A DNA stretch of 63,887 bases, counting the filler, from Sphacelaria rigidula (lineage: Eukaryota): NCBI GenBank assembly GCA_964200075.2. It is 8 parts of 8 records of this genome, joined end to end, with 100 filler letters (N's around TTAATTAATTAA, not from the genome) between each part and the next. Parts side by side here need not be neighbours in the genome. Positions count along the whole stretch, not along the records: positions 24,002 to 31,899 come from CAXNAA020013056.1; 7 more parts are not named here. The stretch is one strand, 5' to 3'. Below the pieces are notes generated by a model that saw nothing but the letters and a program-made list of their open reading frames with translations, was not told the origin of the DNA and made no database searches. A program made the position numbers and the translations under genes. Shown one piece after another: positions 21,442 through 47,894 of the stretch. Numbering within the stretch: the stretch's first letter is position 1; every line of letters starts with the position of its first letter.

Positions 21442-21707
21442 GAGTCATGCTATGATAAGCGGGCGGGGGGTGTTTGATTATTCCACAAAAAAAGGGGCTT
21501 ATAGGTGCGTCAGACGACCTATGACAACACATTCGCGTTGCGCTTGTATTTTTAGTTCAGAGCGACTTCAAGCAGTATGAATGAGCTCTATTTATCGGGA
21601 GCAAGCGCGTTCGACCAACCGTTACTTCTATCAACGACGATTGCAAGTAGAATTTCGTGGAAGAAAAGGGCCCAAAATACCCCCACCCCCCTATCGTGGC
21701 ATGACTC
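21442..21707. mobile_element. MITE with GAGTCATG...CATGACTC termini
   Basis: TIR GAGTCATGC(T/C)A(T/C)GATA followed by G-runs; flanks CGTT/CGTG; same terminus at 31811 and 47808. Confidence 0.75.
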
Positions 21708-21855
21708 CGTGGCGGGAGGTACCGTGGCCGATGGTACCGAGCGTAGCGTACACCCAGCATTTTTGTTGTTTACACAATTGAAGCAAGATACCTGTGAGTA
21801 TTTGAGAAGCAGCGTGTTTTGCTTTTGTTTGCTGCTGTGCTTTGTGTTTGCGAAG

Positions 21856-24001: not shown

Positions 24002-24724
24002 CCCTGCAATGGAGGGATGGGACTTCAACCTCATTTTATGTTTCAACCCCAAAAATTAGGATCGGCTGCTACTTGTTTCTTGGTATGATGCGACAAAATC
24101 TACATTTGTTTCTCCGTGTTTTTATGCCTGCCTTCAGACAATGTAGTCATTGTCTTTTTTTGTTGCCGAGCGTTGTTTTCGTGCCGACTGTTCGATGCAC
24201 AGTATTTGACCCATATCTTTGATTCTCGAGGGGTGTCTCGGTGCATTGTGGTTCTGCTCTGGCTGAGTATGACACTCAGACCATGTTCTGTTTGTCAATA
24301 TTCGAGGTTGAGTTCGTTCCTGCGTGCCGCCGAGACTCGTTGTAAGAATTAGAGCTCTGTGACGTTTAAAAAATGATATTCGAATAGCCCCATTTCTGTC
24401 AGCTTTTAGCTTTTCAAAGCGCAACATTCGACTCCTGTGTTTTTGCTTCTAAAAGAGAGGGTTTTTTTCCCGAGAGGAAAGGGTACTTGGCGAACGGTTG
24501 TGGTGCTGCTTTGGTGGCGCGAGACACTCAGGCCAGGTCCTGTTTGTCAATATTCAAAGCTGAGTTCGTTCCCCCGTTCTGTTGAGACTCGATTGGAAGA
24601 ACAAGAGACAAGAGTTGATTTATGTACTTTGAAAAGCTCTCCGTCTGTAGTGGTGGTGATTTTCTCCATCATCCGCATGAAAGCGCTTGTTTTGTTGTTT
24701 TGTGCACTCTGTGGAGGTTCCGGG

Positions 24725-24990
24725 ACCACCCTTGGGGGAAGACTGGGCTAGCATGGCGTGCTTGTCTTGTTGTTTTGTTGTTTTTGGCACTCTGAGTATG
24801 AACCACCCTTGGCGAAGGACTGGGCTAGCATGGCGTGCTTGTGTTGTTGTTAAGGCACTCTGTATAAACCACCCTTGGCGAAGGACTGGGCTAGCATGGC
24901 GTGCTTGTTTTGTTGTTTTTGCACTCTGCATGAACCACCCTTGGCGAAGGACTGGGCTAGCATGGCGTGCTTATTTTGTTGTTTTTGCTT
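24725..24990. repeat. Minisatellite, 4 units of ~65-77 bp
   Basis: Core ACCACCCTTGGCGAAGGACTGGGCTAGCATGGCGTGCTT followed by a (TTG)-rich segment and GCACTCTG. Confidence 0.9.
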
Positions 24991-25834
24991 GTCTCCGGTG
25001 TGCCTTTTTTTGCCGTGTCCCCTTTTGTGTTTCTTTCCTGCACGTTTCGTGCGTGTATCTCCCCTACCTCTCCTACCACCGAGTCCCGCTGCGGACTTCG
25101 AACTGTTGGTTCGTGGTCTTACACATTTGGACAGTTTGGCACGATGACGACGTACGAAAAAACAATAGATGGCGGCGACCGTGCGTATCTGACCCACAAC
25201 CTTTCGCGCGGGCGTCCGACCTTGAAACAGAGGTTTCCGCGTACATGTTTGGAAGCCATCGTCGTCGTTGTCACAAGCCGGGCGGGACCTCCTCTACGCG
25301 CGCCTTAGACGACGGCCGCGTGCATCTGACCCACAACACAGCCCAAGCATACTTTTTTAGTGCGCGCCTCCGACCCTGAAACATAGGTTCTCAAGCCGGG
25401 ACCTCCTTTACGCGCGCCGAAGCGACCACATCAACCAATGAGCCTAGGAAAATGGAAGTGGGGCGCTATTTTTCCCAATAAACTTACCCGCCGTCGCCAT
25501 CGCTTCACATTATTCAGTTTCACACTAGCATTTGAAGGCCACACGTGTCCAGCGGGACGTGCAGCGCGGGTGGGTTGGGGTCGTCGCTATGCCGGGTATA
25601 TGCATAATAAGAAACAATAAAACGCCGTGGCAAAGAGAAGTGTACCCCAGGGTCACGGTTTGCGCCGTTGGGGGTGTTGGCATTACCTGTTCTCGTGCCG
25701 CCCGTTCCGAAGCCCCGTGCCACCGCCGCCTCTGCGCGCACCGACCGCGGCAGCCAGGTTTCTTAACTTTTCTCCTCAAGGATACACGATTCCATACCCT
25801 GCAGAACATCAAAGTATTTCTGAGATTGGGTTTT

Positions 25835-26890
25835 CCTCTCGAACCTCTGGAAAGAAACCCCCTGACCAACCGATGCCACAAGAAGGGATCGGTGCCCCGC
25901 AAGAAAAAACCCGCTGTACCCCGAACAAGCAGCAGGCTCAAGAAGGCAGCGACTCGCTCACGGCCGAGTGTGTGGTGCGAGCTGTCGCAACTCCAGGCTC
26001 GTCGTCTGATTCTCAAGGTGGGCCTTGGTCGCGATCTCGTGCCTCGAGACCTGCCCACCGCGAAAAACCCCAACAGGCTGTGTGAAACGCTGACGAGCAT
26101 GCTCAAAGCTCCATGTGTCAGAGGCTGTAAGGCTACGAAATTCATCTCCGAGGGATCGTTCGGCCACGTCTTCCGCGCGCTGAGAAATGATGGCACCAGA
26201 GCAGTAATCAAAGTCAGATTGGTTCCGCGAAGGAAATAAAGGGCGAAGCCGCTGCTCAAAAGAATTACCACGGTAAGGGTCTTGCCCCCAAGATACTAGG
26301 GTAAAAAACCGACTGAGAAAATTGGCACACGAGCGACTGAACGACCTTGAATACGATGATGACGACATAGAGTATCACCCCCGGGGCCATTCGGTCCACA
26401 TCATCGTGATGGAGGAGATTGCTGGCGTTATCGGTGACTGGCTACATCCCCTAAAGTCAAAAGAACAGCTCGGACAGCTTACGTTCAACATTTTTTATCT
26501 ATTGGATTCTTTCAGAAGGCACAAACTGACACTTGCCGATCTACACATGTGGAACTTGGGGTACGTGTACACCGACGCGTCGAAGAAACATCTGAAGCTG
26601 ATGCCGATTGATTTTGGGAGGTCTAGCAAAGGAAAGCTTACACGGAGTTGGAGGTTGGCTGCCTCTCGCGCTTCCTTGGCAAAATATTTCACGTGAAAGG
26701 AGAGGGGACGGATAAGCACGTCCCAGACTTCAACCGGCGGGTGGTGGCCAATCTTGCTCGCACGCTTGCCGAGATGAAATACGGCATTTCGTTTCCAAGA
26801 TCTTTCAGCGAGGCGGAAGACAGGTTTTGCAAACAGTTGGGAAAATACACGAAAAACATGGTTTCTGGTAGTTTTAGCTTTCTTACTCTC
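25835..26890 (+). pseudogene. Intronless Ser/Thr protein kinase pseudogene, virus-like
   Basis: ISEGSFGHVF (Gly loop), AVIK, GLAPKI, IIVMEE, LADLHMWN (catalytic loop), IDFG; stop at 26237-26239 and at least two frameshifts; N-terminal ERNPLTNRCHKK. Confidence 0.85.
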
Positions 26891-27059
26891 AGGGACATAC
26901 TAGGCAAATCGAGCGTGTCTAATTTCAGCAGTTCTTACGTGCGTCCCGCGGGACGTGCAGCAACATTTTCCCCGAGAGATCGGGGCCCACATGGCGCGTT
27001 TGGGTTCCCGAGAGATATTTCTAAAAACCCTCGGCGTCCTGGTGTGTGATGGAAGTATA

Positions 27060-27261
27060 CAGTACCGGCCCTATCATAAGAAACCAGAAATCGGGCCCAG
27101 CCTGACTTTCTTATGTTAGGTCGACGGTGGAGGCAAACACTTTCTTATGTAATGTATAGGATTTGGTGTGGCACTCGTCGCCCAGCCTGGGCACTTTCTT
27201 AATTTTTGAAAAATCTCAGCCTCACTTTCTTGTAGGCAGCTTTCTTAAGAGCAGGCCGGTG
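27060..27261. mobile_element. TA-flanked MITE (Tc1/mariner-like)
   Basis: Imperfect TIR CA..CCGGCC....TAAGAAA at both ends; TA on each side; internal ACTTTCTT repeats. Confidence 0.6.
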
Positions 27262-27453
27262 TAATTAACTTAATCATTTTTGGTCATCTCTCAACGCGAA
27301 ATCCAGGCGACACAATAAAATTGCCACAACCGGGCCGCGTCGTCCCGGCTTGTCACAAAACATGGTTCAATGCAATCATGAAATAAATTCAATGACACCG
27401 CGTGTCCAAGTCAAAAGCAGATGCCAACCACCGACCACAGTTAAAAAAAACAA

Positions 27454-30400
27454 TCACATATTCTGGCTGTCGCGCACGCACTCTACTTTCTTGCAACCCT
27501 TGCAAAACCAATAGGACCACTCGCTTCTCCCCTCCTGCTTCTGCCTCCCAACCATATCCCTGACCATTTTCTCTTTCTTTCTTATGGGAAACAGTTCGTA
27601 GAACTGCAGCACATCGCTACGACTGGAATCGTCCTCCCCAACGTGCGCCACCATGTACTCTCTGACCTGATCCTTACACAATCCACCAAACGTGGAAACA
27701 TGGTACATGCAGTTCTCCAATGTGCGTCGCGGATATGACTTACCCGGAACCAACTTCATCTCGACAACCTTCTCGTTGAAAAGCGCATTCATCCGCAGCA
27801 AGAGAGGCATAAGGTCGACCGCAAATGTGCCCCTCTTCATCCGCTTTCTTGGGGGCTGGTTGGCCTCGTCTATGCTCTCGACACCCTTACACGACGCATC
27901 TCCCTTGTCACAAGAGGGTTGGACAGAAGGGCGCTTGTCACCTACCACCGAACCCGACCCCGCGCTCGCACTAAGCCCATGCTTTCGTTCAATCTCTTGC
28001 CTTCCGACTTGCATTTTGACTATTTTGAACTTAAGTTCCTCTTTCCCAAGTTGCTTCTGAAGCTCTTTCGTCTCATCGTCTCCTCGAATGTTTTGAAATG
28101 AGATTCTTCTGCTCTGCATCAAAATCTCTCGATTCTGTGCAAGTATCTCACGCATCAGCTTTTCTACAACACCGTCAGTCGGCTCGGGTTTGTTCCCGTC
28201 GAACAAAGAATCACCAATCCACGTGTTCAGAGCGTCGTGCTGCTGGTCACGTATCGCATCCTTGTCCCTCAAACATGAACGGTTGTTCAGCTCCTGCGCA
28301 CTAATGATACCAGATATCTGCCTACTGAAGGAACTGGGATCATCATTCACGTTGTCACTTTTTGCCAAGTTGTACGCTTTTCTCATCTCGTACTCCACGT
28401 GCCTAGCCAGCGCAAAGTGGTTCAACACCCTGTCATCCGATTGAGGGATTCCCAGCGTATAACAGACCGTCATAACGGTCGTGACATGGGTCGTACGGAG
28501 GGTATTCGGCCCGAACGCGGGTAAGCCCAAAGTATACTTCCCCACGTGGAGATACATGCTGCGCAGCTGACCGTCGTTGTAGTTTTTTCCGTACTTGATG
28601 AATGGAGCTGCCTTGTCACCATGCTCGGCAAACTGTAAAACCCTCGCTTGCCTACGACGGCGATTTCTCACCCTATCCTCCTGGTCAGCCTTCTCTGAAT
28701 CTCTGGGTGCGTAAAGTTGAACCTCTTTATCGGCTCTGCTGAGAGAGTCGCTCGCGGCAGCAAGGTCTCCACGTGCGTCGTCTTCGCTGAACTCATCTGA
28801 ATCTATTGCCTTCGAGAGTCGGCCCTCTGCATCTCTCTGTTTCTCACGCGCCAGCTGTTGTTCGGCACACACCGCTTTGTAGTTTTCTCGGAGGTGCATT
28901 GTCATCAACCGTCGCCCGATCACGAGCATCACCGCAAACGGACCTGTGAATTGAAATGGACAAATCGATCGAGTGGCACGCGCTACCACTAACAACACCA
29001 TCGGTCGGAAAAAAGCAAGCGCAAATGAGACGACAATACTCGTGACAATACTTGCAAATACAATACCCAATTTTCTAGCACCATCACAAAAAAAAGACCT
29101 ACCTGTCGTCCGCTCATCCTTTGCGTGGTTCACCACCATCCCAATTACGCTCTTGACCAGGGTCCTGGAGTTTTTTCCGACCGGTGGGAGGACAAACACC
29201 AATCGGCCATTCTTCACGTACGCCTTGCACGCCAGACACCCTAGCGAATCTTGAGGCCGAAGGCAAGCTGACGTGAGCGAGTCGAGGATGTGGAGGGCGC
29301 AGCTGAACCGCTCCAGGTCTTCGGTGGAAACCCCCGCCTCCGCCAAAACGCCGACCACCTCCTCGATCTGCTCCTCGTACTTCTCGGGATACAGGTGCCT
29401 CTCGTCATCGCGCTTCCCGATGGTAGCCCCCCCGCCGTCGTGAAGCACGTCCAAGCACATCTTGATCACTTCCTTCCGCCGAACGGCGACCCCGATTTTG
29501 GCCATGATGAGCTTGATGCTATTCTCGTCCACCAAGTCGGCCAAAAACTTGCATTTGTCTTTCCAGTCCTCGATACTGAAAGTTCGGCCTTTGTTCACCT
29601 TGCTCCCGTTTCCCAGCCGAGATAGGCTGTTCTCATGCGCGTTGGCCTCATTCCTCTTGTCGGACGCCACCGGATCATAGGCATCGAAGATGCTCTTGAG
29701 AACACGCAGGTCCTGATCCTTCGTCGAACTGATTTCCACCGCGCTCTTGTAAAACGGTCGGTGTCGTCGCGTCTGGGAGACCCTGGTCGTGTTTTCGGTC
29801 GTAGGTTGGATGTCACCCAGGTGCTCGGGACGGGTGAATTCGATCTGTCTGTAAAGCGGACAGTGTGCCCACCACTTGAAGCAATCCGAAACACCGTGAC
29901 CAGTCGACACCCTGGCCCTGGACAAAAGCAACCGTGTACCTAGTCCACACTTGGAAGCGTCCTCGGGGCTGGTGGTGCAGATCGTCTGCTTCGTCTCGCA
30001 GTTTGGCAAATCCACTTCCTCCGAAAGCTCATCGACCGCTCCCCCCGCCGAAAGCTTGTCGGTCGTTACCCCCGCCGTAAGAGGAGCGATGCACGACTCA
30101 ACGCTGGTAGGACGCCCCAGCTTCCACGACGACTGGGCTCCACGAACAAAGTGGTTGACAAATGTCATGTGGCGGTCGTGAAATCGGTACCCGTTTGTGA
30201 CGAAGCCGGTGGTATTCGTCGCACGATACCGACCCAATCCCAGCGTCATGAAAAGCGACCCATCGCGACGCGCTTCCTCCAACAATCCTCCTCCCGATTT
30301 TTTACCGAGAATTGATTCCTCATACTCGGTCATCCTGTCAGCCAGCGACACCGCCTGAATGCCCTTCCATGCGTCCATGCGGAGGCTCAGTGTCTTCTTG

Positions 30401-30999
30401 CAGACTTCCTTGGCAAGGGTTACCGCGTCACGCCTTCTCTTGATCTTGCGATCATCATCGATAACGTACTCCTGAACTTGAACGTTGACTATGCACAAAA
30501 CACCGCGAAGAAACAAGACAACTCGTGCGTCGTCATCCTTCGGAGAACTAACGCCCTGGTTCCCCCCGTACCGCTCAGCCCCGCAAAGGACATCGCGCGT
30601 GCTGTAGACCGACGTTCCACCACAGCCCTTCCACTGGATCTCAAACCCGTTGTACCCAGTGTCCTCGTCCACAAAAAATCTCGTAACCTCACCCGTCTTC
30701 TTTCTATGGACGTCTCGCACCAAAGTTCTCTTCTGGCCTGGGCGACTCCTGCCCCTCCCCCCCTGGCCCATAACCTTGATGCCGTACAGCCTGTAGTCGA
30801 ATTTCTCAAGCTTTTCCACGACGTCACTGGAATCCCGGCCGGTCGGGTCACCCAAAGCCTTCTCGATGTGCAAGTATGTCAAAGATCTCGTGTCCTGTTT
30901 TGTGCGAGCCTTCTTGATTACCGCCAACATCGCTCGGGCCGTTTGGAACTGGTCGCTCAGACGCTTCAACACGTTCGATACGGCGTCTTTTCCACGGCG
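27454..30999 (-). CDS. Large tyrosine-recombinase-like protein (main exon, ~1180 codons)
   Basis: Uninterrupted 3.5-kb frame starting at AG acceptor 31001-31000; ordered candidate catalytic motifs ACLRPQD (R ~29258), HAKD (K ~29120), PNTLRTTHVT (NxxR ~28496), LARH (H ~28400), RKAYN (Y ~28373). Confidence 0.7.
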   Translation of the reverse strand, partial: RRGKDAVSNVLKRLSDQFQTARAMLAVIKKARTKQDTRSLTYLHIEKALGDPTGRDSSDVVEKLEKFDYRLYGIKVMGQGGRGRSRPGQKRTLVRDVHRKKTGEVTRFFVDEDTGYNGFEIQWKGCGGTSVYSTRDVLCGAERYGGNQGVSSPKDDDARVVLFLRGVLCIVNVQVQEYVIDDDRKIKRRRDAVTLAKEVCKKTLSLRMDAWKGIQAVSLADRMTEYEESILGKKSGGGLLEEARRDGSLFMTLGLGRYRATNTTGFVTNGYRFHDRHMTFVNHFVRGAQSSWKLGRPTSVESCIAPLTAGVTTDKLSAGGAVDELSEEVDLPNCETKQTICTTSPEDASKCGLGTRLLLSRARVSTGHGVSDCFKWWAHCPLYRQIEFTRPEHLGDIQPTTENTTRVSQTRRHRPFYKSAVEISSTKDQDLRVLKSIFDAYDPVASDKRNEANAHENSLSRLGNGSKVNKGRTFSIEDWKDKCKFLADLVDENSIKLIMAKIGVAVRRKEVIKMCLDVLHDGGGATIGKRDDERHLYPEKYEEQIEEVVGVLAEAGVSTEDLERFSCALHILDSLTSACLRPQDSLGCLACKAYVKNGRLVFVLPPVGKNSRTLVKSVIGMVVNHAKDERTTGRSFFCDGARKLGIVFASIVTSIVVSFALAFFRPMVLLVVARATRSICPFQFTGPFAVMLVIGRRLMTMHLRENYKAVCAEQQLAREKQRDAEGRLSKAIDSDEFSEDDARGDLAAASDSLSRADKEVQLYAPRDSEKADQEDRVRNRRRRQARVLQFAEHGDKAAPFIKYGKNYNDGQLRSMYLHVGKYTLGLPAFGPNTLRTTHVTTVMTVCYTLGIPQSDDRVLNHFALARHVEYEMRKAYNLAKSDNVNDDPSSFSRQISGIISAQELNNRSCLRDKDAIRDQQHDALNTWIGDSLFDGNKPEPTDGVVEKLMREILAQNREILMQSRRISFQNIRGDDETKELQKQLGKEELKFKIVKMQVGRQEIERKHGLSASAGSGSVVGDKRPSVQPSCDKGDASCKGVESIDEANQPPRKRMKRGTFAVDLMPLLLRMNALFNEKVVEMKLVPGKSYPRRTLENCMYHVSTFGGLCKDQVREYMVAHVGEDDSSRSDVLQFYELFPIRKKEKMVRDMVGRQKQEGRSEWSYWFCKGCKKVECVRDSQNM

Positions 31000-31049
31000 C
31001 TATATTAAGGAGGAATGCTTGTGGGTCGGATTAGGTTCACAGAGCTCAC

Positions 31050-31329
31050 TTGTTTCGTGAGCCACGCCACTCCGCTTCCGCTGCTTCACCGCCTTCCGAA
31101 CCTGCCCATCGGTATCCTCAGAGACCGAAGGCGACGACGGCTGGTTGCGGCCCGAAACAACGACATCCGTGGCATCCTCCTCCTCCTCCTCTCCCTCATC
31201 CACATCCGCCGCATCCCCCGCGTCACAGATGAATCCCCCCTCGACACCGCCAAAGTCAGGAAGTGTTTCGGTATCCTCCTGGTTGGAAACCGGGGCCCGA
31301 CCGGTCGCCACACACTCGCTACAGAACCA
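31050..31329 (-). CDS. Upstream exon of the recombinase-like gene: end of PHD finger plus acidic tract
   Basis: CAG|WFCSEC...DEGEEEEED...|GTGAG; length 280 nt, so one base too long to join the main exon in frame (frameshift or sequence error). Confidence 0.65.
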
Positions 31330-31463
31330 CTGTTACCAGCAAAAACGTGTGCGCGCAAAGAGAAAGAGAGGGCTGTCAAAAGGAGGCGAATTCATCCGCG
31401 CACATGTTACCCTACCTCTTGTGTCCTACAAACAAATCTTACCATGATCTTCTAAATACTCAC

Positions 31464-31810
31464 ATCTCCATCGGGAACGCCTTGGAGAGGGGGGTCGCAG
31501 CACCCAACTTGGCTGGCGCCCGAGCAATCGGCACCATCGCACAAAATGATGAGGTCTCCATCCGAGCGATGATCCACCTCTCAACATTTCCAACACGCCC
31601 GGTCGCTCTCTTCCGGCTGCCTCTCCCTCTCTGCTGCTTCCTCCTCCTCTCTCTGCTCCTGTTCCAGCTGCTCCTCGCCAAATATGCGCTCCGCCTCTTC
31701 CCGCTCCGCCTGGTCATCCTTCTTCCACTTTGCGAGGTACGCATCGTCCCACCCTTCTAGTCCATTTTTGATGTTGGCCAGTTTCTCTGCCTCTTTCCCC
31801 ACCCAATGTG
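31464..31810 (-). pseudogene. PHD-finger exon (damaged)
   Basis: ACWKC*EVDHRSDGDLIILCDGADCSGASQVGCCDPPLQGVPDGD|GTGAG splices in frame to WFCSEC; one in-frame TGA and Gln at the expected His position; 5' side cut by a MITE. Confidence 0.75.
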
Positions 31811-31899
31811 GAGTCATCCTACGATAGGGGGGGGGGGGTATTTTGGGCCATCTGTTGCTCGAAATTTCGAGTCAGATCGCCGTTGAAAGCAGCAACGGT
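31811..31899. mobile_element. MITE terminus (family of 21442-21707), contig-truncated
   Basis: GAGTCATCCTACGATA(G)nTATTTTGGGCC aligns to the reverse complement of 21620-21707. Confidence 0.75.
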
Positions 31900-47807: not shown

Positions 47808-47894
47808 GAGTCATCCTACGATAGGGGGGGGGGGGTATTTGGTTGCACGAAAAAAAAAGGTCATGAACATGTTAGACAACCTTACACACTTGTG

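Follow-up and report, generated by a model that had tools for sequence, protein, structure and literature searches.

Cryptons are DNA transposons whose only enzyme is a tyrosine recombinase of the R-H-R-Y type, and overall identity between their families is very low. They are known from fungi, animals, oomycetes and a diatom, and the account cited here (PMC3212892) lists no brown algae as hosts. Brown algae represent a separate origin of complex multicellularity, and giant transposons and insertions of giant viruses abound in their genomes. Here we describe a locus of Sphacelaria rigidula (assembly GCA_964200075.2) that lies on contig 4 (positions 24002-31899, CAXNAA020013056.1) of an analyzed stretch of 63,887 nucleotides, hereafter called the window. 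The contig carries a large recombinase-like gene and the relic of a protein-kinase-like gene. We favor, as a somewhat probable interpretation, that the contig is a fragment, decayed and interrupted, of a PHD-finger-bearing Crypton-like element that includes a dead kinase gene of phaeovirus type.

The likeness to Cryptons lies in one large intron-containing gene whose product has a putative tyrosine-recombinase domain, several copies per genome and a stramenopile host, and in that no reverse transcriptase was found. On the other hand, the locus differs from Cryptons by a protein of about 1800 amino acids (aa) with no detectable match to any recombinase family, by its PHD finger, by a large core without assigned fold, and by a passenger gene. 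Fungal Starships, for which horizontal transfer between species has been reported, also have a large recombinase-type gene (the DUF3435 captain) at one side of a gene-carrying unit. In the present case, however, DUF3435 appeared only as a weak lead in a feature search (Atlas score 0.84, rank 13) and gave no Pfam match, the visible cargo is one dead gene, and the hosts belong to another kingdom.

The giant DNA transposons of Ectocarpus (KDZ, EnSpm and Sola-1) are comparable in that they exceed 10 kb, carry extra transcribed genes and nested insertions, and often have a pseudogenized transposase (PMC12477816). In contrast, their transposases are of the DDE type, to which no similarity was found here. 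The curated census of Ectocarpus transposons in the same source reports DIRS/Ngaro and PAT-like recombinase retrotransposons and 51 'DNA/Unknown' families, but no Crypton. Phaeoviruses, with their integrase and protelomerase, and the endogenous giant viral elements of Ectocarpus share with our locus the hosts, an enzyme of tyrosine-recombinase type that serves integration (putative in our case) and spliceosomal introns in some genes (PMC13236599), and the kinase family also occurs in a phaeovirus-like genome. They differ in that viral collections yielded no member of the recombinase-like family (two motif scans of IMG/VR), in that contig 4 has no viral core genes, and in the many diverged copies per genome. 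In the literature searched we found no comparable seaweed case linking a recombinase-type element, a viral gene and spread across orders, and the supplement with the curated Ectocarpus transposon library may already hold the family. If our interpretation is true, the locus, joining a recombinase-like gene adapted to the host and a gene of viral origin, would provide a concrete example of transposons moving between seaweeds and could connect transposons and phaeoviruses.

A two-gene unit with several copies in brown-algal genomes

Four sequencing runs (X3, X4, X13 and X15), representing coded organisms B, C and D and an algae metagenome, were aligned with the window. Runs of other organisms contain positions 24071-31810 at about 94-98% identity, in the two genes as well as in the non-coding DNA; X3, X4 and X13 cover 30 of 30 bins of contig 4 and X15 covers 26 of 30, its kinase part at 26114-26905 being without cover. 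Within the recombinase-like gene the contigs are about 2.5-3% different from the window (106/4042 positions in record 14 of X15, 46/1748 in record 20 of X3, and 34/1386 in record 26 of X4), and the 5' half of the kinase relic is 2.6% different (22/849, X4 record 24). The repeat-rich left part is about 4-6% different (50/781 and 27/719 in X15 records 9 and 11, 29/523 in X4 record 23), and difference levels are similar across coding and non-coding parts. Record 25 of X4 spans 26924-27399, and thus reaches from the 3' side of the kinase relic to the 3' side of the recombinase-like gene, over an empty site of the small transposon described below. In Pylaiella, the contigs that carry the two named kinase fragments measure 185,033 and 254,373 bases, and recombinase-like fragments lie on contigs of the same sizes.

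An earlier note on this DNA had proposed that kinase and recombinase arrived together as one unit. Our results support that the two genes travel together, given the stretch present as one piece elsewhere, the bridging contig, the Pylaiella pairs, and the kinase frame breaks shared between copies (see below). The same note had spoken of cargo, which is an overstatement, as the kinase is a dead passenger. Some points weigh against a mobile two-gene unit: in the two Pylaiella pairs the accession numbers of the kinase fragment and the recombinase-like fragment differ by 58 and 67, and the fragments are therefore not necessarily neighbors, adjacency beyond the window rests on one short bridging contig, and neither element ends, nor a target-site feature, nor an empty site of the whole unit was seen in the data.

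The unit is longer than 9 kb and is present in several copies in brown-algal genomes. The cluster of protein P0002 at ≥90% identity has 24 members, 15 of which are listed. Those listed are labeled Pylaiella littoralis (4 contigs), Ectocarpus (4 contigs in 3 taxa), Hapterophycus (2), Laminaria digitata (1), Scytosiphon (1) and Sphacelaria (1), and within one Ectocarpus the listed members lie on 2 contigs. Named members of the family are found on contigs of 74 to 435 kb. Because of the copy number and the differing flanks the unit is presumed to be mobile, by excision and integration.

The absence of visible element ends, pointed out before, was confirmed. At the right, contigs of X3, X4 and X15 depart from the window at 31810, with identical loose letters in X4 and X15. 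The gene is cut at this point because another repeat of this genome was inserted, and the assembly broke inside the intruder. The intruding sequence matches positions 21618-21708 on contig 3 (80% over 93 bp) and positions 47808-47840 on contig 6 (33/33), and having this repeat in common places contigs 3 and 4 in one genome. The left-hand departure of X4 and X15 is at 24071, again with identical loose letters. The repeat family itself, seen at 31811-31843, 47808-47840 and 21669-21708 and hence on three of the eight contigs, starts with GAGTCATCCTACGATA, followed by 12-13 G and then TATTT.

The recombinase-like gene encodes a large protein with a PHD finger

The gene is read from the minus strand as three exons separated by two introns (Table 1). 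The open frame at 27454-30999 comprises 1181 codons and continues in the same frame past a TAG stop and upstream to 31810, with a second in-frame stop, TGA, on the way. Record 14 of X15 joins all three exons exactly. No RNA runs were listed among the holders of the stretch, and that X15 might be RNA is only a guess. A deposited protein labeled Sphacelaria rigidula (P0069) corresponds to the spliced translation of the window and omits the 159-nt intron. The intact relative P0065 is 1822 aa long, with about 470 more residues upstream of window position 31810. Proteins of intact relatives have about 1800 aa; an N-terminal region without assigned function is followed by the PHD finger, then by a large core that is conserved, and lastly by a C-terminal domain.

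The PHD finger is the sole Pfam family match in the recombinase-like family (PF00628 in P0006 and P0075, below cut-off in P0065), and PDB PHD fingers match down to E 1.6e-07. The family is small in word-indexed searches, with members at 92%, at 53-62% (P0003-P0006, P0057 and P0058) and at 30-34% identity (P0007 and P0008). A second protein search with an alignment added only two more fragments of brown-alga type, and all named members are from brown algae.

The earlier note had referred to a recombinase gene. The gene as such stands, with exons, introns and a conserved family, while the label recombinase is probable only. Candidate catalytic residues were assigned by eye in P0001: R581, K609, N832 (H in P0007), R835, H867 and Y876. 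R581 and K609 are invariant in 8/8 sequences, the later R in all four sequences that reach it, and the H together with a Y nine residues further on in 5/5. The order and local context of these residues recall box I and box II of recombinases. R835 and H867 are 32 residues apart, in a candidate assignment made by eye and without a supported alignment to a known member; in Cre, XerD and lambda Int the R-to-H spacing in box II is about 22-23. When residues 587-811 of P0007 were used in the Atlas feature search, which is based on a protein language model, scores of 0.95-0.96 were obtained, and the named neighbors, at 0.93-0.96, were ResT/TelK, Phage_integrase (15 hits) and Integrase_1; shuffled proteins reach 0.95 in about one case out of 100, and such a score is a lead and not a fold. 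Taken together, these features suggest that the C-terminal domain is likely to be a tyrosine-recombinase catalytic domain.

A number of results speak against this assignment. The first Atlas search gave only 0.84-0.86. No match to the tyrosine-recombinase clan was found by Pfam in the window protein plus 8 relatives, and hhalign versus the bacterial and phage enzymes XerC, XerD, lambda Int, Cre, FimB and FimE twice returned a probability of 0.2%. PDB searches by sequence and profile (P0001, alignments A1 and A4) produced chance-level rows with nothing relevant, and two AlphaFold2 models were unusable, with predicted local distance difference test (pLDDT) values of 51.3 and 43.4. There is accordingly no significant sequence or profile match to the tyrosine recombinase superfamily.

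Since no hidden Markov model, profile or fold supports a recombinase, the large protein could instead be another transposase or a chromatin protein, and the unit a giant DNA transposon without a tyrosine recombinase but with accessory genes, as in Ectocarpus. There, giant DNA transposons are 10-30 kb long, with transcribed accessory genes and nested insertions, and the library described has no Crypton and leaves the 51 'DNA/Unknown' families mentioned above (PMC12477816). We regard this alternative as unlikely. Pfam gave no match to KDZ, EnSpm, Sola or any other DDE family in the window protein and its relatives, and no conserved D-D-E pattern was evident by eye in alignment A1, while the R/K/R/H/Y pattern with nine residues from H to Y and the Atlas neighbors point one way. 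Neither a reverse transcriptase nor a DDE transposase domain was found on contig 4 or in the 1822-aa relative. A DIRS/Ngaro element was rejected as no reverse transcriptase was found, and the ALOG-type DIRS element of Ectocarpus is a separate thing (PMC3537659).

Assuming a tyrosine recombinase in a Crypton-like element, the enzyme would cut and rejoin the element ends via a phosphotyrosine intermediate, excise a circle and re-insert it, as proposed for Cryptons, and the PHD finger may steer the element to chromatin. The window copy is inactive, considering the two stops in the recombinase-like gene, the insertion in the spacer, the repeat in the 5' part of the gene and the kinase lesions. If the fold is confirmed, the large protein would widen the known sequence range of tyrosine recombinases.

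Some observations on the relatives should be mentioned. Residues 1-470 of P0065 and 1-560 of P0075 comprise a conserved N-terminal region without family match and then hydrophobic, membrane-like stretches before the PHD finger, which are unusual for a DNA enzyme. In Cladosiphon, one member of the family (gene models P0006 and P0075) is a predicted fusion of the N-terminus, the PHD finger, a partial core, box II with H and Y, and TPR repeats; the gene model may be chimeric, or else the copy was rearranged and domesticated. The equal length of P0064 and an accessory protein of Sola1-1_Ec32 (1104 aa) was dismissed as a coincidence, the latter being a ParB-methyltransferase (PMC12477816).

The kinase relic has a phaeovirus-like homologue

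The intronless kinase gene of the earlier note is present, but only as a broken relic. Tblastn comparison with full-length relatives divides the relic into four frame segments; the breaks fall near 26220, 26300 and 26640. The relic lacks a start codon, and it has Leu at a His position that is invariant in 15/15 relatives. Though broken, it retains most kinase motifs. Protein P0009 has an out-of-frame tail identical to that of the window kinase after about 26640, and P0014 and P0077 share its off-frame LVPRRK stretch near 26220. Homopolymer sequencing errors were ruled out as the cause of the frame breaks, in line with the fact that two of the breaks are common to copies from other sources and one accompanies the loss of several codons. 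As copies from other sources have lesions in common with the window, the kinase was already decaying while it was copied along with the neighboring gene. In P0014 and P0077, two fragments from another species, a compensating change after the off-frame stretch brings the sequence back into frame (compared with window positions 26190-26450), and some kinase copies may thus have stayed open longer than the copy in the window.

A phmmer search among 1.84 billion representatives found 39 proteins of the kinase family at E 0.001 or better. The Gly-rich loop, the VAIK Lys, the alpha-C Glu, HxDxHxxN and DF are invariant in the 15 aligned relatives, as in a protein-kinase-like fold. Pfam weakly puts the relatives in the kinase-like clan: 5/10 of those scanned had RIO1, APH, Kdo or ABC1 above cut-off, and Pkinase was listed for 7/10, each time below cut-off. 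Many N-termini are basic, and C-x-x-G-x-x-R...C repeats are found at the N-terminus in 11 of the 15 aligned relatives (counted by eye). In these repeats and in the kinase-domain motifs K, E, HxDxHxxN and DFG, the relatives resemble protein kinases from nucleocytoplasmic large DNA viruses (NCLDV) with Cys-rich, basic N-terminal repeats (2-cysteine adaptor, 2C_adapt, PF08793). They differ in that only 1/10 relatives matched PF08793, and that below cut-off (19.3 versus 22 bits), and in that the window copy is a pseudogene.

When IMG/VR was scanned with the kinase family, 10 viral loci were obtained. The best homologue, in locus L006, is 50% identical over 308 residues and belongs to a phaeovirus-like record of 335,593 bp, the genome length of EsV-1; the other nine loci are weaker matches from giant viruses. 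The only part of contig 4 that matches any of the 10 loci in tblastx is 25922-26690. In L006:6296-9770, the direct neighbors of the kinase homologue are a frame for an IS4-like DDE transposase and another that is TnpB/Fanzor-like (with a Cas12f1-like TNB domain). This gene neighborhood is consistent with the description of EsV-1 in PMC13236599.

The earlier note had further raised the possibility of an endogenous viral segment, which is supported for the kinase alone, through its phaeovirus-like homologue. In its strongest form this idea takes the contig as a giant endogenous phaeovirus-like fragment with both genes viral, the near-identity between hosts reflecting recent infections by one virus lineage. 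It gains from the 50%-identical kinase and the weaker matches on giant-virus contigs, from ResT/TelK being among the top Atlas neighbors, and from the Pylaiella fragments, which lie on same-size contigs and are separated by many gene accessions. Phaeoviral elements use a tyrosine recombinase of their own to integrate at CC dinucleotides, encode a protelomerase (telomere resolvase), and have spliceosomal introns in some genes, according to the description in PMC13236599. However, the recombinase-like family was found neither in two motif scans of IMG/VR nor by tblastn searches of those 10 viral loci with E values up to 10, where the best match (E 0.001) was with an N-terminal part of P0006 outside the shared family region. 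In addition, no NCLDV core gene (capsid, PolB, A32 ATPase and others) was found on the 7.9-kb contig. The kinase shares only about 50% identity with its viral counterpart, all copies seen of this subfamily are decayed, and diverged subfamilies with several copies per genome suit a transposon better. We therefore judge a viral fragment improbable, and prefer a Crypton-like element that may have acquired its kinase gene from a virus or from an endogenous viral element, the gene then being copied along as a dead passenger.

The kinase relic is bracketed by two 19-nt direct repeats (Table 1) that are 18/19 alike, with a core GTCC-N-GCGGGAC. The whole stretch has 3 matches to this repeat versus 0.11 expected, the third being the reverse reading of the second copy, and it is otherwise found nowhere in the stretch; it was not found in any of the other loci examined. 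The repeats could form a transcript hairpin, as in giant viruses, or be the scar of gene uptake.

Probable spread between brown algae

The window protein is 94.4-95.6% identical to three Ectocarpus copies, an Ectocarpus copy and the one from Laminaria digitata are 99.4% identical (307/309), and two copies in one Ectocarpus genome are 96.7% identical. Pairwise identities of the family copies thus do not track relatedness. As a host baseline we used an ion-transport exon on contig 3 (17592-17966, ending at GT; PF00520 in relatives), which has 66% and 62% identity to its best named brown-algal hits. A rough estimate from 106 differences over 4042 bases and 38 changed residues over 854, which come from different comparators, would put the synonymous divergence of the element at about 0.05. 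The orders concerned split more than 100 million years ago. Because its identity is high compared with the 62-66% of the host exon, the element appears far younger than the split of the lineages. The family has thus probably spread horizontally among brown algae, which is the simplest explanation, perhaps via phaeoviruses. Some limitations count against this conclusion: the host baseline is a single exon, the species labels of assemblies could include epiphytes or endophytes, and the run organisms are coded, so that the cross-order identity at the DNA level is seen only indirectly.

A different explanation of the near-identity is an artefact, in which a widespread fouling or endophytic brown alga, or shared laboratory material, contributed the DNA, and the element is an ordinary lineage-restricted repeat. 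Kelps harbor filamentous brown endophytes. The stretch is present at shares of 0.33-0.39 in metagenomes of algae, marine and biofilm type, about as in coded organisms B and C, and at 40 listed differences the four runs mostly share one letter versus the window. Mislabeled epiphyte or endophyte DNA is possible for some assemblies, but less likely for the window in view of its shared repeat. The window copy has private lesions and ends in a repeat that recurs on two other contigs, one of which carries the host exon that is 66% like Ectocarpus; the named members lie on contigs of 74-435 kb, and the holders of the stretch come from 8 studies. Considering these findings, we find an artefact distinctly unlikely, the least credible of the explanations considered. 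In scans of JGI metagenomes, 62 pattern matches were obtained of which none was confirmed, and a second scan gave 4 matches, none confirmed by tblastn.

Spread of a Crypton-like element may also be given a bolder form. The family could be an undescribed one of large recombinase-driven elements, in which a tyrosine recombinase of very divergent sequence is combined with a PHD finger, and could move between brown-algal orders with phaeoviruses as vehicles. The kinase would then be left over from a time when the element resided in a viral genome, and the 19-nt repeats may mark its uptake. We consider this scenario speculative and rather doubtful.

Layout of contig 4, the spacer and its transposon

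The window consists of eight whole contigs of a fragmented assembly, sorted by length (7901, 7900, 7900, 7898, 7898, 7897, 7897 and 7896 bases), with spacers N44-TTAATTAATTAA-N44 between the blocks. Features of contig 4 are collected in Table 1.

Table 1. Positions of features on contig 4, in window coordinates.
Feature	Positions	Strand	Basis and remarks
Left flank differing from copies in other runs	24002..24070		X4 and X15 contigs depart at 24071, same 30 loose letters
Stretch common to other organisms' runs, part of larger repeated unit	24071..31810		30/30 depth bins covered in X3, X4, X13; long pieces ~2.5-6% different
Two copies of ~94-nt repeat (family D2), 252 bp apart, 79% alike	24246..24591	+	
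Minisatellite (family D1), 66-77-bp unit, ~4 copies	24696..24988	+	
First copy of 19-nt direct repeat (D13), palindromic core, upstream of kinase relic	25547..25565	+	
Pseudogene of phaeovirus-type protein-kinase-like gene, Cys-rich basic N-terminus and kinase domain	25829..26839	+	tblastn of P0010, P0011, P0014; family alignment A6; viral homologue L006
Second copy of 19-nt palindrome-bearing direct repeat (D13), just 3' of kinase relic	26943..26961	+	
Miniature inverted-repeat transposable element (MITE), TA on both sides, imperfect terminal inverted repeats	27058..27261		Joint 27057 to 27262 in X3, X4, X13 contigs
Last exon of recombinase-like gene	27454..28941	-	Stop codon 27454-27456; putative (N)xxR R 28495-28497, H 28399-28401, Y 28372-28374
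Intron, 159 nt, GT..AG on gene strand, frame open	28942..29100	-	Skipped in X15 record 14; missing from P0069, P0064, P0065
Large middle exon, conserved core without assigned fold	29101..31329	-	Putative first R 29257-29259, K 29173-29175; in-frame TAG 31000-31002
Intron, 134 nt, splits PHD finger	31330..31463	-	Skipped in X15 record 14; tblastn of P0006, P0065
Upstream exon, truncated at 31810, first half of PHD finger, in-frame TGA 31581-31583	31464..31810	-	PHD match in relatives
Start of unrelated repeat interrupting gene, contig ends inside	31811..31899		Matches 21618-21708, 47808-47840

Much of what the earlier note had described of the layout was found again: a minisatellite, a kinase and a recombinase-like gene arranged tail to tail (plus and minus strand, respectively), a spacer with AATAAA (at 27314 and 27382) and a small MITE, and, for the visible part, no host-style long-intron gene. 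Its starting position, 24725, falls within the repeat array and is no boundary. The left flank has no second copy within the 63,887-nt stretch. Pfam and PHROGs searches with frames of the window gave 0 families, and Rfam gave 0 on contig 4.

The spacer is limited on one side by the kinase, the homology of which ends at 26839 and the frame of which stops at 27049, and on the other by the stop codon of the recombinase-like gene. Its MITE of 204 bp is skipped exactly in contigs of three of the four runs (X3, X4 and X13), and the insertion is private to the window copy. Sequencing depth over the MITE is in the thousands, up to about 8000, its fold z-score is -2.2, and no further copy was found in the other 56 kb of the stretch. 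Being small and non-coding, with terminal inverted repeats, a TA duplication, empty sites and a high copy number, it corresponds to a MITE of Tc1/mariner type (Stowaway-like).

The core of the minisatellite, at 24770-24988, has a period of 66 and 3.3 copies with 90% matches, preceded by a fourth, more diverged copy. A contig of X3 jumps 130 bases within it (from 24827 to 24958), or about two units, and the copy number of the minisatellite thus seems to vary between copies of the element.

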